Below are positions 4,485 through 38,137 of a DNA stretch of 64,000 bases, in pieces. Under the pieces are notes generated by a model. It was not told the origin of the DNA. It did no database searches and worked only from the letters and a program-made list of their open reading frames with translations. This DNA is from a bacterium (GTDB lineage Bacteria > Patescibacteriota > Minisyncoccia > Phycocordibacterales > UBA12088). The stretch spans positions 701-64,700 of the forward strand of contig QKEV01000003.1 of assembly GCA_003252295.1 (NCBI GenBank), written 5' to 3'. Position 1 is the stretch's first letter, and each line of letters opens with the position of its first letter. Made by a program: the position numbers and the translations under genes.

Positions 4485-4592
4485 AAATTCTGAACTGTTT
4501 TTGCCACAGTAGTGCTATTTTGACTATATCGACGCTGCTGTGTTGTCGTGCTACGATTTAAGCAATAACGGGTTAGTTGTACTGAGTGGCTA

Positions 4593-5555: not shown

Positions 5556-5568
5556 TCAGTAAAACACT

Positions 5569-6696: not shown

Positions 6697-6706
6697 TAGG
6701 ATTTGT

Positions 6707-7621
6707 ATGTATAGAGTTCTATTTTTACAACTAGCTATCATCCATACATTACTGTTTTGTATATGCACGACTCCGCTCTATGCAGCTACGTACTACTTTG
6801 ATCCAGTGCATAATGAGGTAGGTGAAGGACAGGTCAATGAGGTTGCTGTACTCGTGAATACAAATGGTGAATATATTAATGCGTTTGAGGGTGCGGTAGT
6901 GATTCCTGATACTGTTTCAGTGGTAGATGTGAAGACAAATGACTCTGTTGTTGACCTTTGGCTCAGTGCCCCGGCGTTAACTGACGGTCGTATTACATTT
7001 TCCGGTATCGTACCGGGTGGTTTTGATGGTATTCGTTCAGCGTATGGTGATGAACGCAAATCTGGCATTTTGTTGCGTATTGTATACAAGGGTGAACATG
7101 TTGGATCTGAATCATTTATGTTTGAAGACATGAAAGCATACCTGCATGATGGTAAAGCAACTGAAGCTGAAGTTGACCTTGTCCCTGCTGTAGTTGATGT
7201 GGTGAGAGGGGGAATAAAAAGAGAAGAAACAGAAAAAAAAGATACCGTAAAACCTGAAGTATTTGAGCCATATATTGTCCAAGACAATGCACTTGCCGAT
7301 AGTGCTTACGTTGTTGTATTCCACACAAGCGATAGAGGTAGTGGTGTTGCTTACTATGAGGTGTCCGAGACTTCAACAGGAGAGAAAAAGTGGGTACGTG
7401 CAAATTCACCATTTGTACTCAAGTATCAAACTTGCTCAAATGATGTGTACGTGAAGGCCGTTGACTATGCAGGCAATGAACGTGTTGTACAAGCGGTTTG
7501 TGGGGAGGATGGTAGAATCGTTCAAGCATTTTCAGTACTGCCAAAATGGTTCTGGTATGTAGCAGCTCTACTATTTGTTTTGCTACTATTTGTGTATATT
7601 CGTCGTTCTCGTACTGGCTAG
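6707..7621 (+). CDS. membrane-anchored cohesin-like domain protein
   Basis: Signal peptide. The N-terminal domain (VNEVAVLVNTNGEYINAFEGAVVIPDTVSVVDV...ITFSGIV) resembles a cohesin fold and is paralogous to the N-terminal domain of the next ORF. A Y_Y_Y/Ig-like module (VYVKAVDYAGNE) and a C-terminal TM (WFWYVAALLFVLLLFVYI) follow. Confidence 0.55.
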   Translation: MYRVLFLQLAIIHTLLFCICTTPLYAATYYFDPVHNEVGEGQVNEVAVLVNTNGEYINAFEGAVVIPDTVSVVDVKTNDSVVDLWLSAPALTDGRITFSGIVPGGFDGIRSAYGDERKSGILLRIVYKGEHVGSESFMFEDMKAYLHDGKATEAEVDLVPAVVDVVRGGIKREETEKKDTVKPEVFEPYIVQDNALADSAYVVVFHTSDRGSGVAYYEVSETSTGEKKWVRANSPFVLKYQTCSNDVYVKAVDYAGNERVVQAVCGEDGRIVQAFSVLPKWFWYVAALLFVLLLFVYIRRSRTG

Positions 7622-7642
7622 TTAGGGTACACTGTAAGTACT

Positions 7643-9388
7643 ATGAGGTTATCTCGTGTTCTTTGGGCGTTTCTCTTTGTGTTACTGTTTGGGTTTGGAA
7701 CTGTTGCAGATGCTGCAACAATGTTTCCTTCACCCACTTCTGGAGAAAAAACAGTGGGGGCAGTGTTTTCTTTAAAGGTGTACGTTGAAAGCTCGTCACA
7801 AGCGATGAATGCAGCTGGTGCAACGCTGTCTTTTCCTACTGACATTCTTGAGGTTGTGTCGGTGAGTAGAGAAGATTCTATTATAAATCTATGGATACAA
7901 GAACCGACATTTAGTAATACATATGGAACGGTAAAGTTTGAAGGAATCGTTTTTGATCCTGGATTTAAGGGTGCTAGTGGGCAGGTAATCACGGTTCATT
8001 TTCGAGCGAAGAAAATCGGGGTGGCTCCTATTACACTCGATTCCGGGACAGTGCTTGCTAATGATGGTATGGCAACAGAAATCCTCACTGGTACGAAGAA
8101 AGCATCATACTCAATCGTTGCTCCAAGTGCTGTTGAGGTGGCACCATCGCCAGTGGTAGTGGATCCGGTGACAACACAGGTGAACCTCCCAGCACCGGTT
8201 ATTGTCTCAGATACACATCCTGACCAAGATGCTTGGTACAGTAACGGTAACCCTCATTTTTCATGGAAGAACGATAAAGGGGTTACAGCAGTTCGTACAC
8301 TTATAGACAGGGATTCTAACTCTGTTCCAACAGTGGTGTACGATCCTCCTGTAGAGGAGAAGCAAGTGCAAGATCTTGAAGATGGTGTTTGGTACTTCCA
8401 TGTACAAAGTAAGGATGAGAATGGTTGGGGTGGAATTGCACACTATGCGGTACATATAGATACAGAAAAACCACATGATCTCACTATAACCGAAATTGAA
8501 AAGATCGACACAACTACACCAACTGCTGGGTTTACTTTGAATGCTCAAGATGAGGTTTCTGGTATAGATTACTACGAGATTGAAGTAGGTGGTGAGACAG
8601 TTACTTGGAAGCCGGGAAGAGAAGCATTCATAACTTCCGTACTTGAACCGGGAGAATACACGCTTAATGTAAAAGTATTTGATCAAGCAGGAAATGTTAC
8701 TGGTGGTTGGGCAAAGTTCACTATTGAAGGAATTCCAACACCTACAGTTGATGGTACAGTGACAGAGATTACCGCAGGGGAATCCTTTGAGATACGCGGG
8801 AAAGTCACCCAAGGTACTCAGGTAGTGTATGCATACATTACTGATAGATTTGGTGAAGTGTACGAGTTCTCTACTTCTGATATAGCTCAAGATGGATCTT
8901 TTGTGCTCATGGTACAGGGTACACTTTCGCCAGGTGAGTACGTTGTGACACTGGTGGCTGAAGATGGGCAAGGTGCAAGAAGTAGAGAGAGTGGTAAGTT
9001 ACCTTTAACAGTACTCATCCCAGGTTTGTTTGGTCTGACAGTAATGGAGGTGTTGTATATAATTTGCGCTCTCATACTTCTCGTGTTGGTACTCTTTACC
9101 CTACTTATTTTCCGTCATAGGAAAACAGAGCATCTCATCAAGCATCTTGGAAAGGGTGTAGACGAGATGGATAAAAGTGTCGTAAAGGCAGCGGCTCTCC
9201 TCAAGAGTGATATTTCAAAACAGGTTGATGACATAAAAAACAAACGGTCAAGCGGTAAACTGACAAAAACAGAACGAGATCTTGTTGTTACCATGCAGCA
9301 GGACATGGCTGATCTTGAAAGGTATCTTAAGAAACAGATTACTGAAGTAGAAGAATTGCTTGGCAAAGAAGAGGAAAAAGAGGGCTAG
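7643..9388 (+). CDS. membrane-anchored cohesin-like domain protein with Ig-like modules and cytoplasmic coiled-coil tail
   Basis: Signal peptide. A cohesin-like N-terminal domain (VGAVFSLKVYVESS...ATLSFPTDILEVVSVS...VKFEGIV). Ig/Y_Y_Y-like modules (GVWYFHVQSKDENGW). TM LFGLTVMEVLYIICALILLVLVLFTLLIF, then a ~90-aa charged coiled-coil tail. Confidence 0.55.
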   Translation: MRLSRVLWAFLFVLLFGFGTVADAATMFPSPTSGEKTVGAVFSLKVYVESSSQAMNAAGATLSFPTDILEVVSVSREDSIINLWIQEPTFSNTYGTVKFEGIVFDPGFKGASGQVITVHFRAKKIGVAPITLDSGTVLANDGMATEILTGTKKASYSIVAPSAVEVAPSPVVVDPVTTQVNLPAPVIVSDTHPDQDAWYSNGNPHFSWKNDKGVTAVRTLIDRDSNSVPTVVYDPPVEEKQVQDLEDGVWYFHVQSKDENGWGGIAHYAVHIDTEKPHDLTITEIEKIDTTTPTAGFTLNAQDEVSGIDYYEIEVGGETVTWKPGREAFITSVLEPGEYTLNVKVFDQAGNVTGGWAKFTIEGIPTPTVDGTVTEITAGESFEIRGKVTQGTQVVYAYITDRFGEVYEFSTSDIAQDGSFVLMVQGTLSPGEYVVTLVAEDGQGARSRESGKLPLTVLIPGLFGLTVMEVLYIICALILLVLVLFTLLIFRHRKTEHLIKHLGKGVDEMDKSVVKAAALLKSDISKQVDDIKNKRSSGKLTKTERDLVVTMQQDMADLERYLKKQITEVEELLGKEEEKEG

Positions 9389-9480
9389 AAACTTAGGTAT
9401 CTATCCTTAATTACCCTTTACTGTAGTTTCTTGTAATAGAGATACTGCTGTAGGGGGTAGTTTTTGCTATACTTTCAGCA

Positions 9481-10182
9481 ATGAGAGAAGAACATGTTAT
9501 ATCGTACACATCCATACTCAAGGCATTTATTGTTTTTGTTGTTGGAGTTTCAGTTCTAGTTGCAGTTCAACTTTTTTCTGAGGAGAGTGAGGAAGATACC
9601 GGTACAGGTACACAAACTCAACAGGAGGAAACTGTTGCAAAAGAGACCGGGACACAAAAAACTAAAACACAAGGGAATGTAGATTGGAAAACATACGTTA
9701 GTGACGGCAAGATATTTCAAATACAGTATCCTGGAGAGTACTACTATGTGCGAGAGAAAACGAATGGAGCAGAAATGGTAAATATTTTTGAAGAAGATGA
9801 GTACAACAGGGCATATCGTGAGGCGCAGCAGACGTGTGTGGAGCGAGGTGAATCAGATTGTTCGGTGTACTACTCTCGTACAAGTTCAATGCTGATCGTC
9901 ATAAAGGATGATGGTAGAACAATCAAAGAGTATGCAAACATTTATGGTGCAACAAACAAAACCTGTACTGTAGGAGGGAAAAAAGGTTTATGCACCGTTG
10001 CATCTGGTTATACTGACCCAATACCGTATTTTTTGTATGAAGAGAATGGGAAAGTAGTGATATTTTCTAATGTAGGGACAGCCCAGAAACCAAGCGTTCC
10101 TCTGCCAACAGTTGATCCTCGAAGTAGTTTACTTAAAGACGAACGGGAACAAATAGTAGGTACGTTCCGTTTTTTGAAGTAA
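9481..10182 (+). CDS. hypothetical N-terminally anchored extracytoplasmic protein
   Basis: N-terminal TM (ILKAFIVFVVGVSVLVAVQLF), an acidic/Thr linker and a 6-Cys globular region. Last gene of the surface cluster, followed by a terminator. Confidence 0.45.
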   Translation: MREEHVISYTSILKAFIVFVVGVSVLVAVQLFSEESEEDTGTGTQTQQEETVAKETGTQKTKTQGNVDWKTYVSDGKIFQIQYPGEYYYVREKTNGAEMVNIFEEDEYNRAYREAQQTCVERGESDCSVYYSRTSSMLIVIKDDGRTIKEYANIYGATNKTCTVGGKKGLCTVASGYTDPIPYFLYEENGKVVIFSNVGTAQKPSVPLPTVDPRSSLLKDEREQIVGTFRFLK

Positions 10183-10206
10183 TTTATCACCTTACAAAAA
10201 GTTAAA

Positions 10207-10240
10207 ACAAAAAAGCTGGAGAAATCTCCAGCTTTTTTAA
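10207..10240 (+). terminator. bidirectional intrinsic terminator
   Basis: aaaaaaGCTGGAGAaatcTCTCCAGCtttttt: a perfect 10-bp stem flanked by an A-run and a T-run. Confidence 0.7.
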
Positions 10241-10341
10241 AATGAGCGCTCCAAGAGTGTATATGGCTAGCTTAATGTCAGAGCCATCCGTTTTTTTTCT
10301 GGGTTTTGCTATAGAAGCAATGTTTATTTCGTCTTTTCTGT

Positions 10342-10383
10342 TTGGGCTGTTTGATGGGCTGTTTGATGGGCTGTTTAGGTGGG
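10342..10383. repeat. 12-bp tandem repeat (gggctgtttgat x3.3)
   Basis: Direct tandem copies are visible in the sequence. The overlapping 60-aa ORF (MGCLMGCLMGCL) is an artefact of the repeat. Confidence 0.8.
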
Positions 10384-11037
10384 ATACCCAAAGATAACAT
10401 AGCAGTCAGTAGTGACCTTAATCATAAGACTCTTGGAGGCGCGATTCGTTCTGATAGCAGGGTAGCAAAATTACTTTGTATGTCAAATGGGATTATTAAC
10501 ACGTATACAAAAAAGAACCGGTAGTACAACTTGTACTACCGGCAAATACTGCCCAGTGTTTTGAAGCAGATAGATGAGGGGGCGCTCTATACTATCTGTT
10601 GAGAGGACACTAAACAGTAGTTTAGAATTGCCTCCAGTGAGGGTGAATGTTGATCTGATGTTTCAGAGCCCGTTTCATATGCAGAAGTGAGCGCTCGTTG
10701 CATGTACTGTACTGGACTACAGAGCATAGATGACTTCAACAATTCCCCCCGCTGGGGCAATGTCGTTTTCTGTGCGCAAGAATATATGATAATGTTTATT
10801 TGTCAATAGTATAGAAATAAAAAAATGATACCATAGCAGATGGAGTAGTTTTCCCACTAGTTGGTGAGGTTACGGCTCACCAAGGTGTCGTAGACGTCAA
10901 AAGGGCAGTCATAGTGATGTGACTGCCTTGTCTGTTGCATAGGCATATTGACCAAAAAGGTGAATCACCATATAGTCGAGAGAGGCACTATTACAAAGTA
11001 ATAGTACATTACTAAAAGAACTGGAAAGGGGTGCGAC

Positions 11038-11259
11038 ATGGTGCATTGTGGTGTTACATCGCGTACTGATGATTGGGAGAAGCAAGTGGTCTTTTTTGAG
11101 GAAGTTGGTGATAAAGAACTTAATGAGTTGTGTGCCGTTTTGAAAAAATGTAGAGAAGGCGAAGGTAATATACAAATAGTGAGAGAGCAGGCATATTATC
11201 TCATGGGAAAACATCCAACCAACATCCGCATTCTGCATTTTTGCAAACATCTTAATTAA
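11038..11259 (+). CDS. hypothetical small protein (orphan)
   Basis: 73-aa ORF in an AT-rich island with no recognisable motif. It overlaps an antisense ORF, and which strand is coding is uncertain. Confidence 0.25.
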   Translation: MVHCGVTSRTDDWEKQVVFFEEVGDKELNELCAVLKKCREGEGNIQIVREQAYYLMGKHPTNIRILHFCKHLN

Positions 11260-11293
11260 AACCGTTTGTTGAAATATTCATGCCGGAGTACAT

Positions 11294-11776
11294 ATGCTTA
11301 CTCCGGTTGTTTTATTAATTGTTATGTTTGACAAATACAAATACGATTGTATTTTAAAAACAGGATTAATATACAAAAAAACTTCAAACAGGAAGGGGGA
11401 TTACATGCAAGACTATATCTTGGTAACAAAAGCTGTTGCTACTGGGAGAGTATACATGACAACGTATTTTCAACCTGATAATGAAAAGGCTTTTCTAGAG
11501 GCAGAACGATTGTGTAGCACTCAAACAGACAATGAGGTTGTGTTTATAGGTAGGGTGGAAGAGTTAACATTAGATTTCAAACGTTATGTCGACAAGAATG
11601 ACTTTCCTTACCAGTATAGACAGTTGGTTCAACGATACAATGAACTAGAAAATAAAGAGGAAGGTGGTCTAGGAATACTTGCTGATGCAGTGTTGTTGGG
11701 TGAACAATTTCCTAATGAAAGCCTTATAATACATTTTGTAAATTTTTTGAAAGGACGTTTGAGGATGCATATGTAG
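11294..11776 (+). CDS. hypothetical protein (orphan; likely start at Met 11406)
   Basis: 160-aa ORF. The internal Met (MQDYILVTKAV) follows a GGAAGGGGG RBS-like stretch. No recognisable domain. A hairpin lies downstream at 11794-11810. Confidence 0.35.
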   Translation: MLTPVVLLIVMFDKYKYDCILKTGLIYKKTSNRKGDYMQDYILVTKAVATGRVYMTTYFQPDNEKAFLEAERLCSTQTDNEVVFIGRVEELTLDFKRYVDKNDFPYQYRQLVQRYNELENKEEGGLGILADAVLLGEQFPNESLIIHFVNFLKGRLRMHM

Positions 11777-14586: not shown

Positions 14587-14661
14587 TAGTAATTGACAAG
14601 GGTTTGAGCGTTAAGTACTATAGTGCCCACGTTCAAACACTGAAAGAAAACAACAAGTAAC

Positions 14662-17890: not shown

Positions 17891-18454
17891 ATGCAGACAT
17901 ATTCAGAAAAGATAGCTTCAGTATTTGAGACCTTACAGGGTGATTTTGGATACACCAACAAGATGCAGGCTCCAAAGATTGAGAAGATTGTGATTTCAAC
18001 CGGTATTGGTAAGATTGCTGATGCAAAAAAGATTGAGCTCATCCAAGACAGGATGGCAAAGTTCACTGGTCAGAAGAGTGCTGCACGTCCTGCTCGAGTG
18101 AGTATCGCAAGCTTTAAGCTTCGTGAGGGTGACATTGTTGGTTACCAGACAACACTTCGCGGTGACCGTATGCAGGACTTTTTCGAGAAGTTGGTGCATG
18201 TTGCACTTCCTCGAATGCGTGACTTCCGTGGTCTGAAGCCAACAGCTATTGATGAGCTTGGTAACATCACGATTGGCATTCCAGAGCACACTATTTTCCC
18301 AGAGACTTCAGACGAGGATCAGCAGAACGTGTTCGGTATCGCTATCACTATCGTTACCACCGCAAAGACCAAGAAAGAGGCAGAAGCGTTCCTTCGCCAC
18401 ATGGGGGTACCGCTCAAGGTGATGGAAGAAGTGCAAAAGAAAAAGAAGGCGTAA
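17891..18454 (+). CDS. rplE: 50S ribosomal protein L5
   Basis: KIEKIVISTGIG...GYQTTLRGDRMQDFFEKL is uL5. Confidence 0.95.
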   Translation: MQTYSEKIASVFETLQGDFGYTNKMQAPKIEKIVISTGIGKIADAKKIELIQDRMAKFTGQKSAARPARVSIASFKLREGDIVGYQTTLRGDRMQDFFEKLVHVALPRMRDFRGLKPTAIDELGNITIGIPEHTIFPETSDEDQQNVFGIAITIVTTAKTKKEAEAFLRHMGVPLKVMEEVQKKKKA

Positions 18455-18466
18455 ACTCATTTTTTT

Positions 18467-18495
18467 AAACAAAACAATAACCACCCGAAAGGGTG
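18467..18495 (+). terminator. intrinsic terminator after rplE
   Basis: aACCACCCgaaaGGGTGGTTatttatg: perfect 8-bp stem with a GAAA loop, then a T-rich stretch. Confidence 0.75.
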
Positions 18496-18601
18496 GTTAT
18501 TTATGTATCGAACTGCTAGTGGTGATGTAGACAGATTAAATTTATACTGTACTGTAGCAAACAGGAGAGCTGAAACATAACAATAATCAGGAGGAGTCGC
18601 T

Positions 18602-18892
18602 ATGATACATGGGATATCGTATGTACATAATGAACCTGAAACAAAGTTTCAAGCATGGAGGGATTTTGTTCTTACGGTCGTGGGTTTCTTCATACTTCAA
18701 TTGTACATTTTGGGAATATTTTCCAATGGTATCATTATGTTGCTGAAGCTTGATACCAATCCAAACATGACAGTTGGAGTCGCTTGTTTGTTGGTACTAA
18801 TCGGTTTTTTCGGTTCATTTATTTGGCCATTACTCTTTTGGGCTGAAATTAAAAGATCTTTTCGTGTTACACAAAATTTTTCAAAAGTTTGA
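18602..18892 (+). CDS. hypothetical small membrane protein
   Basis: 96-aa ORF with two or three hydrophobic helices, followed by a strong terminator. Sits inside the r-protein operon insertion. Confidence 0.4.
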   Translation: MIHGISYVHNEPETKFQAWRDFVLTVVGFFILQLYILGIFSNGIIMLLKLDTNPNMTVGVACLLVLIGFFGSFIWPLLFWAEIKRSFRVTQNFSKV

Positions 18893-18901
18893 TTATCGTG
18901 C

Positions 18902-18941
18902 CCCCTTAGAGACAAGTCTCTGAGGGGGTGTATGTTTTTGT
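18902..18941 (+). terminator. intrinsic terminator
   Basis: CCCCCttAGAGACaaGTCTCTgaGGGGG hairpin followed by tgtatgttttt. Confidence 0.75.
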
Positions 18942-19182
18942 CTAATTTGTACAAGTTACATGGTATCGATGCTGTATAATAATGACATCATGGTTATTGA
19001 TATTGAATTGACGCTCAATAGGTTTGGTTTTGGAAAGATTGCTGAGAATAAGTTTCAGCTTCTCTTTTTACGTTTTTCACACTGGAACATACCGGGCAAG
19101 TACTCGGTTTCTTTTGAGGTAAACTGGCGAAGTGAGGCACTACAGTAATCTATTGTGTGAAAGGATCCTTTGTATACAGGTT

Positions 19183-19215
19183 AAGCCACCCCCTTGGGGG
19201 TGGCTTTGTTTCTTC
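19183..19215 (+). terminator. intrinsic terminator-like hairpin
   Basis: AAGCCACCCCCttgGGGGGTGGCTT followed by tgtttcttc. Confidence 0.6.
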
Positions 19216-19228
19216 AGTTAAAAGAGTA

Positions 19229-19489
19229 TTAGTGGGTGCCATGAACATCTTTTGTTAGTATGGCGATTTCTTGAAGAGGTATTTCAAGTGTTTTGTATAC
19301 CTCCTGAATTTCTTCTGCACTGATACTTCCATTGTTAAACAACTTATCTAGTGCTCCAGCAACAAAGTAGCGGGCATAGTACTGCTTGTTTGATTTGATA
19401 TACTCCTCAAGTTTGAGTTGACTTTTCTCGTCAAGATACTTCATTGACAAAATACGTAGCACATCATCACTTACCGTAGTGGTCCTCAT
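19229..19489 (-). CDS. hypothetical protein
   Basis: 86-aa ORF on the minus strand with no motif recognised. Lies within the insertion. Confidence 0.35.
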   Translation of the reverse strand: MRTTTVSDDVLRILSMKYLDEKSQLKLEEYIKSNKQYYARYFVAGALDKLFNNGSISAEEIQEVYKTLEIPLQEIAILTKDVHGTH

Positions 19490-19614
19490 ATAACACCTCC
19501 AAGGTACAGGTTCTCTTTACTGTTGTTTATACAATAGTAACAAAATGTATGCAATGTGAAAGAAAATGGGCGGGTACAACGTATAATAAAGCAGTCAGAA
19601 TTAATAATTTTTTT

Positions 19615-21357
19615 ATGGATATATTTAAGAATACTTGGGTACAGCGTATTGGCGCCTTTTTTATTGCTTTGACCTTTGTAGGTGCAATATACATTTTCTT
19701 CTTTGGAGGTGAAGATGAGACGGTTGCATCTGCAAAAGTGGTACAGACTGTTGACAAGGGAACTGTTTCGACGAGTATAGAAACCACTGGGGAAATAGAA
19801 GCTGCAGAAGTGCTCGATCTCGACGTGTACAAGCTTGCCGAACGTATAGATGCGGTTGGTATAAGTAATGGTGTACATGTAGAAGAAGGTGACCTTCTTT
19901 TTGCGTTTGATCAGAGTGATGTAGACATAGAGATATCAGCATCACAAATAGATGTTGATGAAGCAGAGCTTGCACTTGAAATACAGCAACAGGAGTCCGG
20001 TGACATAAATACCAGTATCACAAGTTTAAAAAATGAGATAGCGTTACTGGAAACAGATCTCGCAGGGTATCCAGATGACAAAAATGACACACTGCGTGAT
20101 TTTTTGAATGAAAATATTGAAGCAGTCTCAAGTGATGATAGGTATGATGTACAAGTAGACAAGACTGCACCAACGATAGGTGGCTATTACAACAGTACAA
20201 TAGAGGGTGAGTATCACATAAAGATATTTGCCTCAAGTGAGGAATCTGGTTACTCATATACTTTGAGTGGTCTTGAAAGTGGTACATACCCAGTCTACCT
20301 CAACACAAAAGTAAATCTTGGGACACGTGGTCTGACTATTACATTCACCTCAACTGACATACGAGCTCGTGATGAGTGGGTAGTGTCTTTACCTAATACA
20401 GGAGCTTCAGAGTATCCAGAGAACCTTAAGGATTACCAAGATGCTATTGAACGAATTGATGAGAGTATTGAGAGTGATACAGTCTCACTTGCAAACAAGA
20501 AGACACAACTTTCTCAGGCTGAGCGTGGTGACACTTCGTTTCAGCGTCAACTTGATGTTGAGAGTGCAAAGCTTGCCGTAAGCCGTGCATATGTGGATCT
20601 TCAGGATAAGGTGGCTGAGCAAGATGAACGGTACATAGTTGCACCATTCTCCGGAACAGTTGTGGGAATGGAGAATGTTGTTGTGGGTGCAACACCCACC
20701 AAGGATAGTGATGATCCGGTAACCTTTGGTTCACTCATTTCTGATGAGTTCCATGCAACATTCTCACTTGGTGCTAGTGATATAGATAAGGTGAGTGTAG
20801 GGCAGAAGGTTGAAGTTACACTCACGTCAGTTTCTGGAAGTGAGCCACTTACTGCAGAGATAGTGGAGGTGAGTTCATTGCCTGACTCAAGTACGGTTGC
20901 ACAGTATGAGGTGAAGGCACTCATTACAGAGGTGCCAGAAGGTATTAACCTTCGTGATGGTCTGCTTGCCGATATTGCCATTATTCAAGAAGAAAAGGAG
21001 GATGTATTGCGAGTACCTTCTTCAGCGGTAACGTATAGCGGCACACAGGCACAGGTTACAGTGCTTGAAGATCTATCAGATACTGAGCTCAAGCAGATAG
21101 AGCGAATGGGTATCCTTCGTGTTACTGATACTTCCACCTTTACCTCGTATGCGAAAGATGTTGAGATTGGTCTCATCGGACAGTACTATGTCGAGATACT
21201 CTCAGGTCTTGAAGAAGGTGATATTATTTCAGTGAGCAGTGTCTCTGTTTCTACAGAAGAGGATACATCAGTAGTCGATGATGCACGTATGGGACCGGGA
21301 GGTGGTGGTGGTAGTCCTCCTGCGGGAGCAGCGGCGATGGGTGCTATGAGAGGATAG
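19615..21357 (+). CDS. efflux membrane-fusion (periplasmic adaptor) protein, HlyD/MacA-like
   Basis: N-terminal TM (IGAFFIALTFVGAIYIFFF), a biotinyl/lipoyl-like hairpin (VHVEEGDLLFAFDQSD), a long coiled coil and a beta-barrel region (VAPFSGTVVGMEN). The operon continues into an ABC ATPase and an FtsX-like permease. Start chosen at Met 19615 (MDIFKNTW). Confidence 0.7.
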   Translation: MDIFKNTWVQRIGAFFIALTFVGAIYIFFFGGEDETVASAKVVQTVDKGTVSTSIETTGEIEAAEVLDLDVYKLAERIDAVGISNGVHVEEGDLLFAFDQSDVDIEISASQIDVDEAELALEIQQQESGDINTSITSLKNEIALLETDLAGYPDDKNDTLRDFLNENIEAVSSDDRYDVQVDKTAPTIGGYYNSTIEGEYHIKIFASSEESGYSYTLSGLESGTYPVYLNTKVNLGTRGLTITFTSTDIRARDEWVVSLPNTGASEYPENLKDYQDAIERIDESIESDTVSLANKKTQLSQAERGDTSFQRQLDVESAKLAVSRAYVDLQDKVAEQDERYIVAPFSGTVVGMENVVVGATPTKDSDDPVTFGSLISDEFHATFSLGASDIDKVSVGQKVEVTLTSVSGSEPLTAEIVEVSSLPDSSTVAQYEVKALITEVPEGINLRDGLLADIAIIQEEKEDVLRVPSSAVTYSGTQAQVTVLEDLSDTELKQIERMGILRVTDTSTFTSYAKDVEIGLIGQYYVEILSGLEEGDIISVSSVSVSTEEDTSVVDDARMGPGGGGGSPPAGAAAMGAMRG

Positions 21358-21358
21358 T

Positions 21359-22054
21359 ATGAACACCGAGACAAACAACATTGTTACCCTTGAACATGTA
21401 CATAAAGAGTTTGTACTCAGTAAAGCGGTTACGGTGAAGGTCCTCAATGATATTAACCTGACCATAAAAGAGGGAGAGCTTGTAGCGATTATTGGTCCGT
21501 CAGGTTCAGGTAAGTCTACCCTTATGAACCTCATTGGTTGTTTAGACACACCGTCAACGGGAACATACCTCTTCAATGGAAAAAATGTCGGTACAATGGA
21601 TGATGATGCACTTGCTGAACTTCGTTCTACTGAAATAAGTTTTATTTTTCAATCATTTCATTTGCTGCAGGGAAAGAGTGTGTACCAGAATGTCATGTTG
21701 CCACTTCAGTACCAACGTACCTTCAAGGGTGATTACAGGGAGAAGGTTGAAAAGGCGCTCAAGGAAGCAGATATGCCTGAAAACAGGTGGAACTATAAAC
21801 CAAACTTACTTTCAGGAGGTCAACGACAAAGAGTAGCAATAGCACGTGCACTTGTCGCGCAACCAAAACTACTTCTTGCTGATGAGCCAACCGGTAACCT
21901 TGATAGTAAAACAGGTGAGAATGTACTGGATGCATTGATCAAACTCAATAGGGAGCATGGTACAACAGTGGTTATCGTGACACATGATAACAGTATCACT
22001 GAAGTGGTTGATAGGACTATTCGAATAGTAGATGGGTTAATACAACAAGATTAG
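21359..22054 (+). CDS. ABC transporter ATP-binding protein (MacB/LolD/FtsE-like)
   Basis: Walker A GPSGSGKST, signature LSGGQRQRVAIARAL and Walker B LLLADEPTGNLD. Confidence 0.88.
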   Translation: MNTETNNIVTLEHVHKEFVLSKAVTVKVLNDINLTIKEGELVAIIGPSGSGKSTLMNLIGCLDTPSTGTYLFNGKNVGTMDDDALAELRSTEISFIFQSFHLLQGKSVYQNVMLPLQYQRTFKGDYREKVEKALKEADMPENRWNYKPNLLSGGQRQRVAIARALVAQPKLLLADEPTGNLDSKTGENVLDALIKLNREHGTTVVIVTHDNSITEVVDRTIRIVDGLIQQD

Positions 22055-22160
22055 TACCTGTCCCGTTAGAAATTATTGATTACTCGCAAGAACAAGTAAT
22101 AGAGATTAAAAACGGGGTTTATACAATAAAAATAATTATTAGAGGATAATTTCTAATGGG

Positions 22161-23342
22161 ATGAAACTGAGACATATAGTACAGGAAGGTGGGCAAGCAC
22201 TACATGCAAACAAGCTCCGTAGTGCGCTCACAATCATAGGTATCGTTGTTGGTATCTTTGCGGTAACTGCCATGTTAGCACTTGGTGAAGGTCTTTCGCA
22301 GAACATTGAAGACAGGATCAGCTCTATGTCCTCAGGAGATATTTCTGTGCAAGGTGATCTTACTATGACTGATTTTGAATGGATACGAAGTCAGTTGTAC
22401 ACAGAGGATGTGGTTGCTACATTGAGTTCGAGTAATCCTACAGTCATTATTTCTGGAACAGAGTACAGTGTCTCTGTTTCAAGTCCATTTGGTGATTATT
22501 TAGACGCTAATGATCTTGATATTACGAAGGGTGAAGTGTATGACTTCAATGATCCGGAGTATGAAGAGAAAGTGGTTATTGTGAGCTCTAGTCTTGAGGA
22601 TGCTGTTGTTGAAGATGGGGGACAGAGTATTTTAAATCAGAAGATTTCTATTGGTGGGTTGCAGTACACAGTGATCGGTATCTTCGAGGAGAGTAGTTCT
22701 GGTTTCATGAGGAATGATGGCACGGCTTACATACCGTACAAGGCAGCGGTGGGTAATGTTTCCAATACGAGCAACTTTAGTAGTATGGCAGTATACCTCG
22801 TTGATTCTTCGTACTATGAGATAGCAGGAAAGCATATACTTGAGGGGTTGAATGCCTCACGACACCTCTCCCTTGATAGTGAGGACCTTTTCAGTGTTTC
22901 AACTGCACAATCTATGATTGAGTCGGTACAGGAAACTTCAGCTATGATTAGTCTCTTCCTTGGTGTGGTAGGAGGTATTGCACTCTTTGTAGGAGGTATC
23001 GGCACCATGAACATGATGCTCACATCGGTTACTGAACGTACAAAAGAAATTGGGCTCAGGAAAGCGATTGGTGCACGAAACAGAGATATTCTCCTGCAGA
23101 TACTCGCAGAGTCAGTGTTCCTTACTATGATAGGAGGCATCATTGGTATTCTCATTACTTATATTGTTTCAATAGTGGCAAACAAAATGCTTGGAGATTC
23201 AAGCACGCTCTCACTTGTAGTATCTAGTGGTGTGGTTATCTTTGCTACATCAGTAGCCATTGCTGTGGGTGTCATCTTTGGACTCTACCCAGCGCGTAAT
23301 GCGAGTAAGCTCCAGCCTGTGGATGCATTAAGAACAGAGTAA
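22161..23342 (+). CDS. ABC transporter permease, FtsX/MacB-like
   Basis: N-terminal TM, a large periplasmic domain and a C-terminal 3-TM FtsX-like domain (GLRKAIGARNRDILLQILAESVFLTMIGGIIG). Confidence 0.8.
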   Translation: MKLRHIVQEGGQALHANKLRSALTIIGIVVGIFAVTAMLALGEGLSQNIEDRISSMSSGDISVQGDLTMTDFEWIRSQLYTEDVVATLSSSNPTVIISGTEYSVSVSSPFGDYLDANDLDITKGEVYDFNDPEYEEKVVIVSSSLEDAVVEDGGQSILNQKISIGGLQYTVIGIFEESSSGFMRNDGTAYIPYKAAVGNVSNTSNFSSMAVYLVDSSYYEIAGKHILEGLNASRHLSLDSEDLFSVSTAQSMIESVQETSAMISLFLGVVGGIALFVGGIGTMNMMLTSVTERTKEIGLRKAIGARNRDILLQILAESVFLTMIGGIIGILITYIVSIVANKMLGDSSTLSLVVSSGVVIFATSVAIAVGVIFGLYPARNASKLQPVDALRTE

Positions 23343-23385
23343 AACAAATGCACCCCGCAGAGACTTCTCTGCGGGGGTAAGTAGT
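23343..23385. terminator. bidirectional terminator between convergent genes
   Basis: taaaacaaatgcaCCCCGCAGAGActtcTCTCTGCGGGGgtaagtag: perfect 11-bp stem with A-rich upstream and T-rich downstream flanks on both strands. Confidence 0.75.
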
Positions 23386-23391
23386 TTGTAC

Positions 23392-23826
23392 TCATGCCTC
23401 AATTGTCTTTGCAATATGCACCCATGCATCAAACACGATGTCAGGAAGATCCTGTCTTCCATCAAGCAGTGCCACGTATGCCCAGGTAGGAAGCTTCTCA
23501 ACATTAAGGGTTTGAATAGCATTCACCATTGCTTCTTCGATCCACTGTTCCAAGTTGCCACTACCTGCTGCATTCTCCCACATGTTCAAGAGCTGTAGGT
23601 AGGTGAAAGGTCTGGTGTGATGTATATCCCTACACATTACGAGAAGTTTTTCTTCGATGGTTTCTATGTCCCACTCATCTCTGAATAGTATCTTTTGTAT
23701 CTGTAATACTGTTTCAAGATCGTCTATGGTATTGCATTTACCAAGTATTGTTTCCAAATCTTCTTCTTTGAGCTCAGAAGTTGGTTCCAAGAAGTAGCTT
23801 GCAAGTTTTCGTTTCAGTGTTTCCAT
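23392..23826 (-). CDS. hypothetical acidic cytoplasmic protein (144 aa)
   Basis: Start chosen at Met of METLKRKL because a GGAGG sits 5 nt upstream on the minus strand (plus-strand acctcc at 23831-23836). The ORF track extends to a TTG at 23883. No domain recognised. Confidence 0.45.
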   Translation of the reverse strand: METLKRKLASYFLEPTSELKEEDLETILGKCNTIDDLETVLQIQKILFRDEWDIETIEEKLLVMCRDIHHTRPFTYLQLLNMWENAAGSGNLEQWIEEAMVNAIQTLNVEKLPTWAYVALLDGRQDLPDIVFDAWVHIAKTIEA

Positions 23827-23923
23827 AAATACCTCCATTGTAGTGTTTAGAGATGTACTTCGGTTTCTCATTGCAGAATACAATATGTACTTACATAAGC
23901 AATATATGGCAGTCTGAAAACAT

Positions 23924-23952
23924 TTGACAAAGTAAACGCAAACTGCTACTAT
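23924..23952 (+). promoter_or_regulatory. sigma70-like promoter for rpsZ-secY half-operon
   Basis: TTGACA, a 17-nt spacer (aagtaaacgcaaactgc), then TACTAT. Sits ~105 nt upstream of rpsZ. Confidence 0.5.
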
Positions 23953-24057
23953 GCCTCAACGTTTGGAATATACCCAGCGTAAACGGTAGAGAAAAGTCAC
24001 TTTGATACTCTCTCTACGCGTGATGCTCCTCGGGGCATTTTATATTTGCAAAAAGTT

Positions 24058-24243
24058 ATGGCAAAAAAATCAGTAATAGCAAGATCACAAAAAAAACCAA
24101 AATTCGAAACACGTAAGGTGAATCGATGTTTTCGTTGTGGTCGTGGAAAGGGGTTCATGCGAGATTTTGATCTCTGCCGAATCTGTTTCCGTGAATTAGC
24201 AAACGAAGGCCATATTCCTGGTATTAGAAAGAGCTCTTGGTAG
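24058..24243 (+). CDS. rpsZ: 30S ribosomal protein S14 type Z (zinc-ribbon form)
   Basis: MAKKSVIARSQKKPKF...CFRCGRGKGFMRDFDLCRICFRE carries C-x2-C...C-x2-C. It is 61 aa long. Confidence 0.93.
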   Translation: MAKKSVIARSQKKPKFETRKVNRCFRCGRGKGFMRDFDLCRICFRELANEGHIPGIRKSSW

Positions 24244-27985: not shown

Positions 27986-28003
27986 TGCTTAGTTTTTAGC
28001 ACA

Positions 28004-28090
28004 CTGCTGTGTTGCTCTTCATAAAACGAAACTCACCGTACACTCAGTACGGCTCGTTTCTTTTTACTCGAGCGCCTTGCATTGCATCTA
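28004..28090 (+). repeat. intergenic repeat family, copy 1
   Basis: Shares CTG.GTTGCT, a hairpin (CCGTACactcaGTACGG) and CGAGCGCCTTGcATTgCATC with copies at 32674, 33498 and 54722. Confidence 0.6.
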
Positions 28091-28147
28091 AAAACTAAAC
28101 CCTTGGTTATGTGCAAGGTGAAAAATTGTTTACTTCGAGTCTGGATT

Positions 28148-28200
28148 TGAGTACGGTTCGTTTTCTTTTATTTGCATACCTTGACCTGCACTTGAAAATT
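28148..28200 (+). repeat. intergenic repeat family, partial copy 2 (3' half only)
   Basis: GAGTACGGTTCGTTTTCTTTTaTTTGCATACCTTGaCcTGCAcTTG parallels the 3' half of copy 1. Confidence 0.5.
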
Positions 28201-28205
28201 TGAGT

Positions 28206-29204
28206 TTAATCTTTGCTTTCGAAAAAAAACGATTCGATGCTTCTTGCTTGAATGCTTTTTTTTGTGTTTAAAAACCATGAATGCTGAATATGTGGTAGTT
28301 TGAGTAACCGTTTTTTTGCTTTGACTTTGTTCTCATCAGTACCGCTCTCAGTAGTTTTTTCCTCAGCAACATCTTCCTTGGTAGCAGTGTCTTCAGTGGT
28401 AGCGTTTTTGTTAACTACATCCTCAGTATCTCTAACGGCAGTGTCCTCAGGGCTGCTGTTCTCGTCGGTGGCGTCTTCGATGGTGATGTGTTTAGTGGTA
28501 GCATCCTTTGTGGCTTTGTCGCTCTTAGGGGTAATATCTTCAACAGGTATATGGGTTACGGTAGTAGCACTTTTGGTGGCAGTGTCCTCAGTAACACTCT
28601 TGGGTTTAGTTTTCTTAGTTATTTCTAGTATTGCCCAGTGTTGTTCATCTACGTGTATAGGCGCATGACCAGGTAGGGTGCGTAGGAATAGTTGGTACGT
28701 TTCTTCAATGGCATCCTCAACACTCTTGATTGAGGTAACATTGGGTCGTTCTTTCATTGCCGTTTCCATGGTGTCATACAGGTCGTTGATCTCCCCCATG
28801 TCATCTTCAGTCAGTTTTGGGGAACCCTCTTCACCCCAGCAGCCACGCTTAAGTAAGCGTTCAATTGCTTGTTTCCTTTCTATGTCTAGGTACACCTCAA
28901 AGAAAGGCACTTCTATTTCCTGTGCGATGTTTTCAAACACCTCTGCATCCTTTGGTTCGGTAAGCAGGTAGGGAAGTAGTACGTCGTATCCTGCTTCAAG
29001 TTGGTTTTTTACGATAGACTTGGTGTGTTCAAACACCAATCGTCTTGCCTTGTCTTCCTGTTCTCTCCATCCCCCCATCATGCTAATGATTTGATCTCCC
29101 TCAAAAGCCATGGAGAGAGGATGTTCATCTGTGTATTTTTTAGACAAGGTTGTTTTCCCGCTTGAGGCAAAACCATACAGTAGTATTAGTTTTGGTGTAT
29201 TCAT
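28206..29204 (-). CDS. P-loop kinase-like NTPase (AAA_33/zeta-toxin-like fold) with long acidic Thr/Asp/Glu/Lys-rich repetitive tail
   Basis: N-terminal Walker A (LLYGFASSGKTTLSKKY) and a ~180-aa kinase-like core. The C-terminal ~150 aa is low-complexity with TEDTATK repeated three times. Confidence 0.55.
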   Translation of the reverse strand: MNTPKLILLYGFASSGKTTLSKKYTDEHPLSMAFEGDQIISMMGGWREQEDKARRLVFEHTKSIVKNQLEAGYDVLLPYLLTEPKDAEVFENIAQEIEVPFFEVYLDIERKQAIERLLKRGCWGEEGSPKLTEDDMGEINDLYDTMETAMKERPNVTSIKSVEDAIEETYQLFLRTLPGHAPIHVDEQHWAILEITKKTKPKSVTEDTATKSATTVTHIPVEDITPKSDKATKDATTKHITIEDATDENSSPEDTAVRDTEDVVNKNATTEDTATKEDVAEEKTTESGTDENKVKAKKRLLKLPHIQHSWFLNTKKSIQARSIESFFFESKD

Positions 29205-29266
29205 GCACCAAGTATACCAGACACATGCATGGTTTTACTCACAGGAGTATAATGAGAAACGTGTGT

Positions 29267-30070
29267 ATGTCTGAAGATGTAAACAAGTACAGCATAGAGG
29301 TTACAGACTTAGTGAAGCAGTTTGGTGACTTTACTGCGGTGAAGGGTGTGAGTTTTAGCGTGAGGCAGGGCAGTATCTTTGCATTCTTAGGACCAAACGG
29401 TGCAGGGAAGACGACGACCATTAAGATGCTCACGACGCTTTTGAAGCCGACAAGTGGTACTGTACAGCTGAATGGTATAGACCCGACCAAGAACCAGGAC
29501 ACGGCACGTAAGTCATTTGGTATCGTCTTTCAGGATCAGAGTGTTGATGAGGAGCTCACGGCATACGAGAACATGTACTTCCACGCCATGCTCTATGGTG
29601 TGGAACGCATACGAGCACAAGCAATGATAACTGAGCTCCTCACAGAGTTTGAACTCATTGAGCGCAAGGATAGTTTGGTAAAAGAGTTCTCTGGAGGAAT
29701 GCGACGACGGCTTGAGATAGCTCGTTCGTTCTTGCATGAGCCAAACATCATCTTTCTCGATGAGCCAACACTTGGACTCGACCCTCAGACGAGAGCAAAG
29801 CTGTGGGCGCACGTGTTAAAACTGAACAAGGAAAAAGGGGTGACTGTATTTCTCACGACACACTACATGGAGGAAGCAGAACGTATGGCAGACCAGGTGG
29901 CAGTCATAGACCATGGGGCTATTCTCGCTCAAGGTACGGTAGATGAGATAAAAGAGGAAGCAGGAGCAGAGACGCTCGAGCAAGCGTTTCTGGATATGAC
30001 TGGACGAGACATCCGTGAGAGTGAGGCAACAGGTCTTGAACGAATGCGTAACTTTAAGAGGAGGAGATAA
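29267..30070 (+). CDS. ABC transporter ATP-binding protein (ABC-2/DrrA-like)
   Basis: Walker A GPNGAGKTT, signature FSGGMRRRLEIARSF and Walker B IIFLDEPTLGLD. Start at Met of MSEDVNKYSIEV. An alternative ATG lies at 29252. Confidence 0.85.
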   Translation: MSEDVNKYSIEVTDLVKQFGDFTAVKGVSFSVRQGSIFAFLGPNGAGKTTTIKMLTTLLKPTSGTVQLNGIDPTKNQDTARKSFGIVFQDQSVDEELTAYENMYFHAMLYGVERIRAQAMITELLTEFELIERKDSLVKEFSGGMRRRLEIARSFLHEPNIIFLDEPTLGLDPQTRAKLWAHVLKLNKEKGVTVFLTTHYMEEAERMADQVAVIDHGAILAQGTVDEIKEEAGAETLEQAFLDMTGRDIRESEATGLERMRNFKRRR

Positions 30071-30075
30071 AACAT

Positions 30076-30822
30076 ATGGGAGTAATACATATACTTTGGC
30101 TACGACAAATAAAGCGATACCTTCGTTCACGGGCTCGCATGCTTGGTTCGCTTGCTCAACCACTTCTGTTTTTTGTAGCACTCGGTTTTGGTTTCGGTCC
30201 TGTCTTTGAGCAGGCTGGCAACGGCAGCTACATACAGTTTTTAGCACCAGGAGTTATTGCAATGTCAGTGATGTTCACTTCAGTGTTCTCCGGTATCGAC
30301 CTCATTTGGGATAAGCAGTTTGGTTTTCTGAAGGAGACCCTCGTTGCCCCTGTCTCTAGGGTGAAGATTTTATTTGGACGAACACTTGGTGCAGCAACGG
30401 TAGCTATGATGCAGGGATGCCTCGTGTTCCTCCTCACGTTCTTGTTTGGTTTTCGACCTGAGAACATGCTCTACTTACCGCTCGCGTTTCTCTTTATGGC
30501 ATTCATTGCTTTTCTCTTTACGGCACTCGGTACTGCACTCGCGTCGTTAGTGAATGATATGCACGCATTTCCAATGATCATGAACTTCTTGGTAATGCCA
30601 CTCTTCTTCCTCTCAGGCGCACTCTTTCCACTTGAGAACCTTCCCGCGGGAATCCGCTACGCTACCTATGGAAACCCGCTTCGCTATGGAGTCGATGGGC
30701 TCCATATAAGTATGAGTGGTCTTGAGGGTATTGGAATCATGGCAGACATGGGTACACTTTTAGTGTTTATTGTAGCGATCATGGGGTTGGGTGTGTATCT
30801 GTTCAAACGCATTGAGATTTAA
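30076..30822 (+). CDS. ABC-2 family transporter permease
   Basis: 6-TM protein with an ABC-2 type motif. Translationally coupled to the upstream ATPase. Confidence 0.75.
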   Translation: MGVIHILWLRQIKRYLRSRARMLGSLAQPLLFFVALGFGFGPVFEQAGNGSYIQFLAPGVIAMSVMFTSVFSGIDLIWDKQFGFLKETLVAPVSRVKILFGRTLGAATVAMMQGCLVFLLTFLFGFRPENMLYLPLAFLFMAFIAFLFTALGTALASLVNDMHAFPMIMNFLVMPLFFLSGALFPLENLPAGIRYATYGNPLRYGVDGLHISMSGLEGIGIMADMGTLLVFIVAIMGLGVYLFKRIEI

Positions 30823-30918
30823 CGTCAAAATATTGACAAAAACTTAATAAAATGTTATAAATAAAAAGGTTTGTAAACAAGTATAGCGAAGAACAATAGA
30901 ATCCTTTGGAGGTGTACA

Positions 30919-31143
30919 ATGTTTAAAATTTTGATATTTATCGCACTTTTTGGACCTGACCCATGTATGAATGGTTGCTTCTACACCGGAATGCGACCAC
31001 AACCAGAATTTCTTGGTTTTTCTGATGTAAATATTCAAGCAACCTTTGAAACAGAGGAACTCTGTACGCAGGCAGGAGAGAAATTGACCTCTGCGGACGG
31101 TCGGTTTCCAAATGTGAGGTTTGATTGTGTTCAGGTGAAGTAA
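30919..31143 (+). CDS. hypothetical small secreted 4-Cys protein
   Basis: 74-aa ORF with an N-terminal hydrophobic stretch (MFKILIFIALFG) and four Cys. A hairpin lies downstream. Confidence 0.3.
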   Translation: MFKILIFIALFGPDPCMNGCFYTGMRPQPEFLGFSDVNIQATFETEELCTQAGEKLTSADGRFPNVRFDCVQVK

Positions 31144-31155
31144 GTAGTGACTTCT

Positions 31156-31187
31156 TACCCCGTAGATGTATGTGTATCTGCGGGGTA
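31156..31187 (+). terminator. terminator-like hairpin
   Basis: ACCCCGTAGATgtatgtgtATCTGCGGGGT: 11-bp stem with one G-U pair. The T-run is weak. Confidence 0.45.
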
Positions 31188-31280
31188 TTAATGTGCAAAA
31201 AAATGTGAGTGTGGTAAAGTTAGTTATGTTTTTGCGTTACATGTTGAGCGCAAAAGCATTTTTTAGTTTAGTATATTGAT

Positions 31281-38011: not shown

Positions 38012-38064
38012 AAGAAACACTAATACCTGCAATGCTATCCGCATTACAGGCGTAGTGTATCTAG

Positions 38065-38137
38065 TGCGCGCACCAGGACTCGAACCTGGGACCACAGAGG
38101 TATAAGCTCTGCGCTCTACCAACTGAGCTATACGCGC
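38065..38137 (-). tRNA. tRNA with anticodon TAT (reads AUA; tRNA-Ile(UAU)-type)
   Basis: Manual fold of the reverse complement gives a 73-nt cloverleaf. Acceptor GCGCGTA/TGCGCGC, D-arm GCTC-AGTTGGTA-GAGC, anticodon arm CAGAG-CTTATAC-CTCTG, T-arm CCAGG-TTCGAGT-CCTGG, discriminator A. No encoded CCA. Confidence 0.75.

Follow-up and report, generated by a model that had tools for sequence, protein, structure and literature searches.

A probable hotspot of gene flux between rplE and rpsZ in the ribosomal protein gene cluster of a Patescibacteria lineage

The subject here is a gap of 5,603 nt that opens the S10-spc supercluster of ribosomal protein (r-protein) genes between rplE, encoding L5, and rpsZ, encoding S14, in a Patescibacteriota genome of Paceibacteria type. 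The stretch of DNA analysed, hereafter ‘the window’, comprises 64,000 nt (contig QKEV01000003.1 of assembly GCA_003252295.1, positions 701 to 64,700), and the nearest relatives of its L5 are metagenome-assembled genomes (MAGs) labelled Patescibacteria, Paceibacterota, Kaiserbacteria and Nomurabacteria. A first-pass annotation, made from the sequence without database searches, had taken the gap (18455-24057) for an insertion that split the supercluster and carried a MacAB-like efflux system together with orphan genes; the separation of rplE and rpsZ by 5.6 kb is exactly as it described.

What lies between rplE and rpsZ

The r-protein genes of the window run L3, L4, L23, L2, S19, L22, S3, L16, L29, S17, L14, L24, L5 and, beyond the gap, resume with S14, S8, L6, L18, S5, L15 and SecY. 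There is no L30 between S5 and L15, an absence typical of the Candidate Phyla Radiation (CPR)/Patescibacteria (PMC9297842). Junctions in the cluster are of 1-75 nt each, with that of rplE and rpsZ as the sole exception. Misassembly can be ruled out as its cause, because independent Logan contigs from SRR7216773, one (L070) covering rplE to the adaptor gene described below and the other (L071) the ATPase gene to rpsH, span both junctions at 100% identity. Within the gap are six open reading frames (ORFs) with support as genes, four terminator hairpins and a promoter, TTGACA-N17-TACTAT. Five intervening genes had been counted initially; the ATPase and permease are in fact separate, and a 62-aa ORF is a doubtful seventh.

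The upstream unit ends with rplE (17891-18454, + strand; Pfam Ribosomal_L5/L5_C; NCBIfam L5, 192 bits), directly after which comes an 11-bp hairpin with a GAAA/TTTC loop (18476-18501, not assigned to a strand) that is likely an intrinsic terminator; a terminator had been anticipated there, with its position given wrongly as 18467-18495. Then follow, all on the + strand, the gene for a 96-aa protein with two transmembrane (TM) segments and an AGGAGG ribosome binding site (RBS) (18602-18892), a 15-bp terminator hairpin past it (18898-18931), the 62-aa ORF, which lacks an RBS and may instead mark a small transcript (18960-19148), and its own terminator hairpin of 10 bp, 7 of them GC pairs (19183-19206). 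An 86-aa ORF with a GGAGG RBS (19229-19489, - strand) diverges from the gene for a MacA-like membrane-fusion adaptor of 580 aa (19615-21357, +), after which are those for an ABC ATPase of the MacB/LolD/FtsE type (21359-22054, +) and a MacB-type permease (22161-23342, +). The permease gene converges with that for an acidic 144-aa orphan (‘ORFan’) protein of isoelectric point 4.47 (23392-23826, -), and between the two is a hairpin of 10 bp, 8 of them GC (23353-23376), which the scan listed for the - strand only and which, judged from its position, is probably bidirectional. The earlier description of several intrinsic terminators punctuating the region, and of the 144-aa gene as divergent from rpsZ with a perfect GGAGG RBS, was accurate.

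On the far side rpsZ is the first gene of a downstream unit, rpsZ-rpsH-rplF-rplR-rpsE-rplO-secY, and encodes a type-Z S14 of 61 aa (24058-24243, +; NF005974, 104.7 bits), its true start being the ATG at 24058, kept as ATGGCAAAAAAATC in relatives. The promoter assigned to it at the outset, TTGACA-17-TACTAT at 23924-23952 (+), is present and has a TG upstream of the -10. The rpsZ leader (about 23959-24057) ends in a hairpin and U-run, GATGCTCC-TCGG-GGCATT plus a U-rich run (24022-24048, +), 18 nt before the start codon.

Terminator-like sites in 12-30 kb of the window number 26 as against 12.2 +/- 3.0 in shuffles. Over the same 12-30 kb Rfam, in E-value mode, gave nothing beyond a sub-threshold Phe-leader match on the rplE terminator, and hidden Markov models (HMMs) for L5, S14, L24 and S8 found nothing significant in six-frame translations of the gap, i.e. 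no r-protein relic. The 62-aa ORF is called as a gene in L070, and a 20-nt likeness between it (19026-19045) and rplE (18002-18021) is probably due to chance. The cargo comprises at least three separately terminated modules, an arrangement that fits stepwise accumulation: a first would be the small membrane-protein gene, perhaps then a tiny transcript; a second the divergent 86-aa ORF with the adaptor, ATPase and permease genes; and a third the acidic ORFan.

Lineage-wide cuts and the turnover of cargo

Relatives were retrieved via the L5 protein, 69 loci being from species-representative genomes and 80 from metagenomes (149 together), and the spacing of 16 consecutive gene pairs was measured in them by tblastn. 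Two junctions only are open, L2|S19 and L5|S14. The first exceeds 300 nt in 37/41 genome loci and 24/25 metagenome loci, and the second in 41/55 and 35/39 respectively (76/94 together), with medians of 774 nt (genome) and 919 nt (metagenome) and a maximum of 9.1 kb. At the remaining junctions there is no case over 300 nt, L18|S5 apart. Its spacings of 300-450 nt (none >1 kb) are probably explained by the S5 N-terminus, which varies and which tblastn does not align.

Terminator-like hairpins no more than 120 nt past the stop codon follow rplB in 58/66 cases (88%) and rplE in 92/136 (68%), as compared with 0-7% for eleven other genes and 17% for rplO. A promoter motif, TTGAC[AT]-N16-18-TAnnnT within 250 nt upstream, precedes rpsS in 57 of 98 relatives (58%) and S14 in 45 of 94 (48%); for fourteen other genes the figure is 0-1%. 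Compact rplE|S14 spacers of 44-85 nt (L003, L049, L056, L060, L066) still have the promoter, and since it is already there, the division into transcription units is older than the insertions. L2|S19 is compact in the window, a spacer of 75 nt (14587-14661), yet has the same TTGACA-17-TACTAT promoter (14593-14621, +) as rpsZ. The initial view that an insertion split the supercluster is not sustained: the rplE-rpsZ break is found across the lineage and antedates the cargo. That view came with the proviso that the same arrangement throughout the lineage would make it an old feature rather than an insertion, and this proves apt for the break, which is near-universal, and not for the cargo. The 5.6 kb can still be called an insertion in that, beside L001, L002 and L003, the closest relatives, it is derived; their S14 is 85-90% identical to that of the window and their gaps, of 644, 230 and 80 nt, lack the cargo.

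What occupies the L5|S14 slot changes from locus to locus. When gap ORFs were clustered, the 117 from the first 69 loci fell into 113 clusters, and the 176 of at least 60 aa from all loci (76 gaps) into 135, of which 113 are confined to one locus. Among the 74 larger gap proteins of relatives each Pfam family occurs once, examples being aromatic lyase, DUF475, TerC, NADAR, OmpA, thioredoxin, peptidase C39 and one IS200 transposase, and the majority have no family. PADLOC gave a few isolated weak hits for the 74 and no defence enrichment, and the idea of a defence island was rejected on that account. As for the gap genes of the window, their sole match in the 149 relatives is a distant ABC ATPase paralogue (L034, 34% identity), and in none of the 149 does any DNA resemble that of the gap.

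Sharing of cargo goes with near-identity only: it is seen in 8/14 pairs of loci at flank identity of at least 98%, in 1/25 at 90-98% and in 4/80 at 80-90%; L009 and L085, with flank identity of 97.3%, have gaps of 7.7 kb and 0.5 kb respectively. In one species-level group (L039, L041, L042, L045, L046, L144 and L155) the flanks are 93-99% identical as protein and ~90-94% as DNA, and the gaps, of 750-850 nt, each have a different + strand ORFan of 120-190 aa without Pfam match. With flanks 93-99% identical, DNA homology ends within ~15 nt of the rplE stop codon and returns 170-230 nt before the tblastn match to S14, which for L041, in the one pair worked through, is ~20 nt upstream of the promoter -35. 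The content thus differs between conserved flanks, and it does so specifically at this junction. Contig ends are also concentrated here, with 9 within 600 nt after rplE and 0 before it in the genome set, and 13 after and 4 before, within 300 nt, in the metagenome set, a distribution that fits heterogeneity within populations.

The other cut is occupied differently. L2|S19 gaps in relatives are of 1-6 kb (e.g. L010:2301-4759, L039:805-1710) and their residents are conserved, with clusters of 24, 22 and 17 loci and with DUF2103, a PG_binding_1 protein and DUF3298 represented. As this cut holds stable residents, an operon boundary alone, or one with conserved flanks, is insufficient for hypervariability.

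At both cuts there is a recurrent architecture in the leaders of relatives: the promoter, then, typically 8 nt after the -10, a GC-rich hairpin of 4-8 bp, a T-run and a start codon without Shine-Dalgarno. It is found in 25/37 distinct S14 leaders (e.g. L039-L046, L056, L066) and 17/48 S19 leaders (e.g. L001-L005, L039-L058), as against ~1 expected from shuffles, and the stems are of at least 15 different sequences for S14 and at least 11 for S19. In the window the promoter is 70 nt further upstream than the hairpin/U-run, there is likewise no Shine-Dalgarno, and the rpsZ leader folds into three hairpins (z = -2.1). A conserved long rpsZ leader was considered and rejected, the window, L001, L002, L003 and L049 aligning from the start codon onward only.

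Such a hairpin could stop read-through from rplE or rplB or, acting on the new transcript, attenuate it or stabilise its 5' end. In the leader of the Escherichia coli S10 operon, L4 mediates attenuation at a hairpin and U-run upstream of rpsJ. The leaders considered here resemble that one (background in PMC3616713) in that a GC hairpin and then a U-run separate the promoter from the start codon of the first r-protein gene. They are unlike it in that the hairpin is very short, starts ~8 nt past the -10, has no larger leader structure around it, is not conserved in sequence and has no Rfam match. The promoter-proximal hairpin and U-run of rpsS and rpsZ are a candidate regulatory or insulating element.

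Several other features of the slot in relatives deserve record. L039, L042 and L144 share one gap family at ~75% DNA identity, their flanks being at ~90% or more. The gap of L083 contains a 64-nt copy of the rplE 3' end (L083:10710-10771), and on L024 an N-terminal piece of rplE recurs 4 kb past the gene, at a contig end (L024:13692-13832); both could be scars of recombination or duplication, or artefacts of assembling strain mixtures. Gaps of 380-960 nt without a frame of more than ~60-80 aa are present in L016, L020, L029, L091, L112, L115 and L148, and may represent decayed cargo or an undescribed non-coding transcript; Rfam gave no hits in the ORF-poor gaps of eight relatives, including L020, L029 and the similar L017. 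Downstream of the slot S14 is of the short zinc type (~61 aa, two CxxC) in 55 loci and of 80-89 aa without Cys pairs in 28, short and long forms being interspersed in the clade. At some loci L5 is only 54-61% identical yet S14 is 77-84% identical.

The exporter operon and the orphan genes

Matches to MacA and MacB by domain, PDB, profile and Foldseek comparison vindicate the MacAB-like assignment made at first. The adaptor, which has the membrane fusion protein/HlyD fold, matches TIGR01730 with E 3.9e-21 and 75.4 bits, under the curated cut-off of 94.9 bits, and is one of a family of at least 165 proteins of ~580 aa whose named members are from Parcubacteria, Kaiserbacteria, Minisyncoccia or Paceibacteria and whose profile matches MacA 4dk1 (7e-9) and 5nik. 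The top Foldseek matches of its AlphaFold2 (AF2) model, of predicted local distance difference test (pLDDT) score 81, are to MacA in MacAB-TolC (9qgy_G, 6e-17; 5nik_D, 8e-16). The model has an N-terminal TM anchor, a disordered C-terminal Gly/Pro/Ala-rich tail and a confidently predicted extra beta domain of ~90 aa (residues ~169-258) inserted at the tip of the alpha-hairpin. Many Gly/Tyr/Ser/Trp positions are invariant in the inserted domain.

The gene for the ATPase is 106 nt upstream of that for the permease. Its product matches ABC_tran (1.7e-35), the MacB nucleotide-binding domain (2.2e-66) and LolD (1.8e-66), and, because all its matches are below equivalog cut-offs, it is placed in the MacB/LolD/FtsE class and not assigned to a subfamily. 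The permease has an N-terminal TM segment, a MacB_PCD domain (PF12704, 5.3e-27) and a 3-TM FtsX domain (PF02687, 8.7e-22), aligns with MacB residues 262-648, and has as PDB matches MacB 5gko (E 5e-50) and Spr0694-0695 of Streptococcus pneumoniae, 5xu1 (E 8e-44). The spacer between ATPase and permease genes (22055-22160) includes a 16-nt inverted repeat, 22061-22076 / 22146-22161, that is 94% complementary, and a spacer of 51-125 nt is kept at this position in orthologous operons.

MacAB-TolC of E. coli (5nik) and Spr0693-0694-0695 of S. pneumoniae (5xu0/5xu1) likewise have a MacB_PCD plus FtsX permease, a MacB/LolD ATPase and an adaptor of MacA fold in one operon, and YknXYZ of Bacillus subtilis is also a MacAB-type exporter. 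Separate ATPase and permease polypeptides, as in the window, are a feature of the Gram-positive systems. The window adaptor differs in its length, 580 aa as against ~370 aa in known MacAB-type systems, and in its N-terminal TM anchor and Gly/Pro/Ala tail; its beta domain is at the hairpin tip, where MacA contacts TolC. No OEP/TolC domain turned up among the ~45 window ORFs scanned (0.1-52 kb, with ORFs up to 52 kb included). An outer-membrane channel would not be expected in Patescibacteria, and Gram-positive MacB homologues work without a TolC-like duct. The exporter is most likely a mechanotransmission pump of MacB type whose adaptor is hexameric and anchored in the membrane, the cell having no outer membrane. 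No gene for a precursor peptide or bacteriocin, and no biosynthetic gene, was identified next to it, its neighbours being ORFans.

Where is such an operon at home? The best long-contig relatives of the adaptor are L072, from the assembly holding the closest rplE (82%), L073-L075, which include GW2011_GWA2_43_11, and L077/L078. In these four independent relatives identity to the window exporter is 55-58% for the adaptor, 70-74% for the ATPase and 59-66% for the permease, well above that of paralogous operons nearby. In all four an MGMT-like gene precedes the operon, with TspO beyond it, and a Cupin gene comes after, separated from the operon by a 155-aa ORF in L077/L078; a gene for a PilB-like T2SSE ATPase is downstream wherever the contig reaches, and L072 and L073-L075 also have response-regulator genes and a second exporter operon. 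The comparison of GC content that had been proposed gave 0.412 for the gap and 0.435 for the window, which is unremarkable, and the tetranucleotide correlation of the gap, 0.907, is to be compared with 0.895 +/- 0.047 for other 5.6-kb segments of the window, so that the gap lacks the compositional deviation of a genomic island. The supposition that the cargo is foreign DNA fails, its composition being native and its exporter orthologous to a Paceibacteria operon normally found elsewhere. Going by composition and orthology, the exporter is native, and the usual place of its orthologues is a conserved non-ribosomal neighbourhood.

The orphan genes are less forthcoming. The 96-aa protein has no significant family match, and its coding score is the best of the six frames but weak. 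For the 86-aa ORF the coding score is positive in frame 0 only, and it has one distant homologue (36% identity, E 8e-13 by tblastn), divergently upstream of an adaptor gene on the short contig L076, the adaptor there being 77% identical to that of the window. Its presence beside the adaptor indicates that the 86-aa gene is real and travels with the exporter operon in a sub-lineage. A word-indexed search with the protein found itself only, and PHROGs and viral contigs yielded nothing. The 144-aa ORF also has a positive coding score in frame 0 only; its product found itself only in the word-indexed search (5.8 billion proteins), itself and a spurious repeat-summed match (P0002) by full HMMER in 1.8 billion representatives, and nothing in PHROGs and viral contigs. 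Its single-sequence AF2 model, with pLDDT 43, is uninformative. The homology search recommended for these two orphans has thus furnished a relative for the 86-aa protein and none for the 144-aa protein, and the candidacy of the latter as an immunity protein or regulator finds no support.

A permissive slot and the alternatives

We consider it probable, and with fair assurance, that the locus is an inter-operon hotspot of gene flux with relocated native cargo. The S10-spc supercluster would then be three transcription units, ...rplB | rpsS...rplE | rpsZ...secY, with a terminator after rplB and after rplE and a near-consensus sigma-70 promoter before rpsS and before rpsZ. Sequence and its conservation point to independent termination upstream of the slot and independent initiation downstream of it, and the promoter and terminators are presumably functional. 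With the downstream unit independent of read-through, the spacer from the rplE stop codon to the rpsZ promoter would therefore be selectively permissive, a place where DNA may be gained, replaced and lost quickly without disturbing r-protein expression. Permissiveness, and not a dedicated recombination system, is the likely basis of the hotspot, and entry was probably by illegitimate or homologous recombination instead of by a mobile element. The native exporter, as the second module, would have been relocated or copied into the slot, and both translocation and duplication fit.

Several points weigh against this reading. The source genome was read in the window only, which bears on the choice between translocation and duplication. 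About half of the relatives have no recognisable consensus promoter upstream of S14, and the three-unit model may fail for part of the clade. Promoters and terminators alike are consensus matches, and their backing is conservation. In compact junctions a terminator-like hairpin is often downstream of the promoter, which a model of terminator followed by promoter does not explain. Some of the gap ORFs of relatives are probably spurious and would inflate the cluster counts, and as the relatives were sampled by rplE similarity and not by phylogeny, events were not independently counted. Finally, the sharp and recurrent boundaries could reflect a specific recombination mechanism.

Does the slot tolerate newcomers or actively exchange them? 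A dedicated cassette-exchange locus, at which rplE and rpsZ/rpsH serve as homology arms, or the terminator/promoter hairpins as recombination sites, for active replacement, is the alternative that fares best and is nevertheless unlikely. It would account for boundaries that recur at the rplE stop codon and near the rpsZ promoter, for unrelated cassettes of similar size and on the same strand between nearly identical flanks, for the copy of the rplE 3' end in L083 and for the mixing of short zinc-type and long S14 isoforms across the clade, and the type IV pilus genes of the window (PilM, PilB-like) would be compatible with DNA uptake. Against it are the parallel L2|S19 cut, with its stable residents, and the finding of no conserved boundary element besides the promoter and hairpin. 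A fuller proposal, to which we would accord a slightly better but still small chance, is that r-protein homology arms at such a dedicated exchange site recombine DNA from diverged relatives, while the insulating hairpin and U-run stop read-through and shape the 5' ends of rpsZ and rpsS mRNAs. If cassette exchange does occur, new genes, most of them ORFans, would have a preferred way into these reduced genomes through the ribosomal cluster.

A single insertion of a mobile element, whether integrative island or transposon, into an otherwise whole rplE-rpsZ operon, with a foreign efflux system as its load, has little to commend it. The absence of the window cargo from all sampled relatives, and the IS200-type Y1 transposase in the gap of one of them, are what such an event might leave. 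Opposed to it is that the break is older than the cargo, and that no integrase, transposase or relaxase is encoded among the six gap proteins or the ~45 ORFs scanned over 0.1-52 kb, in keeping with what the first-pass annotation had said of integrases and transposases. No pair of terminal direct or inverted repeats was found flanking the gap, and the only tRNA gene in the window, at 38064-38137, is not nearby. The gap is indistinguishable in composition from the rest of the window, the named relatives of the exporter are of Paceibacteria type with orthologues in a conserved chromosomal context, and for the 144-aa and 86-aa proteins, the orphans that were tested, no relatives turned up among phage families or viral contigs. 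Functional coupling, with the pump placed beside r-protein genes for protection from macrolide-like antibiotics or for co-regulation with translation, is very improbable since, even if MacB is the best solved-structure match of the permease and MacAB is named for macrolide export, the operon has terminators at either end to insulate it and a divergent control region of its own, its orthologues are in a non-ribosomal neighbourhood and other genomes fill the slot with unrelated genes.

A permissive hotspot would have precedent. Invasion of inter-operon spacers has been described for Gammaproteobacteria and Bacilli (PMC8046335), where 67% of rearrangement events are from insertions, usually without an obvious mobile element, and where duplication with later asymmetric loss, or recombination assisted by transposons, is proposed as the route (PMC6735719; Brandis 2021, PMC8046335). 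The logic in the present case is the same. It differs in that the cuts are near-universal in the sampled clade and that turnover at rplE|rpsZ is of unusual speed, at species level and with mostly ORFan cargo; furthermore, in E. coli the equivalent positions are within single operons, rplB|rpsS in S10 and rplE|rpsN in spc. A full-text literature search, of incomplete coverage so that an earlier description is possible, did not find these Patescibacteria breakpoints described; what it did find was rpsN isoform replacement and insertions between operons in other phyla.

Comparative genomics has a general concept of integration hotspots, or flexible genomic islets, flanked by core genes that are conserved. 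The slot is like them in its conserved flanks, its sharply bounded variable content, the differences between near-identical strains and the breaks in assembly. It is unlike them in being inside the most conserved of bacterial gene clusters and in having no tRNA gene or integrase and no defence enrichment.

The interest lies in the lineage-wide re-partition and in the one hypervariable slot, the cargo of the window, a MacAB-like pump and orphans, being ordinary. S10-spc is treated as an unbroken syntenic unit in binning, curation and phylogeny of CPR/Patescibacteria, and here it has two systematic cuts, of which the hypervariable one is a preferred contig break, a matter of relevance to MAG assembly and to concatenated r-protein markers. 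The locus offers a natural example of a conserved cluster being dismantled, with internal promoters and terminators coming first and gene invasion after, and it would widen the model put forward for Gammaproteobacteria and Bacilli so as to cover breakpoints within the S10 and spc operons. The slot is in addition a compact and easily found place for studying the origin and turnover of ORFans in ultra-small genomes.

Elsewhere in the window, a 1164-aa ORF at 142-3636 has no Pfam match, and upstream of the r-protein genes 3789-11776 has six or seven + strand ORFs without confident family match; to judge by weak signals for Dockerin, Big_13 and PKD, their products may be secreted or at the cell surface. 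Downstream, at 27986-31280, the usual gene order is interrupted a third time, between secY and adk, by an AAA_33 kinase-like gene (28206-29204, -) and genes for the ATPase and permease of an ABC-2 transporter (29150-30822).

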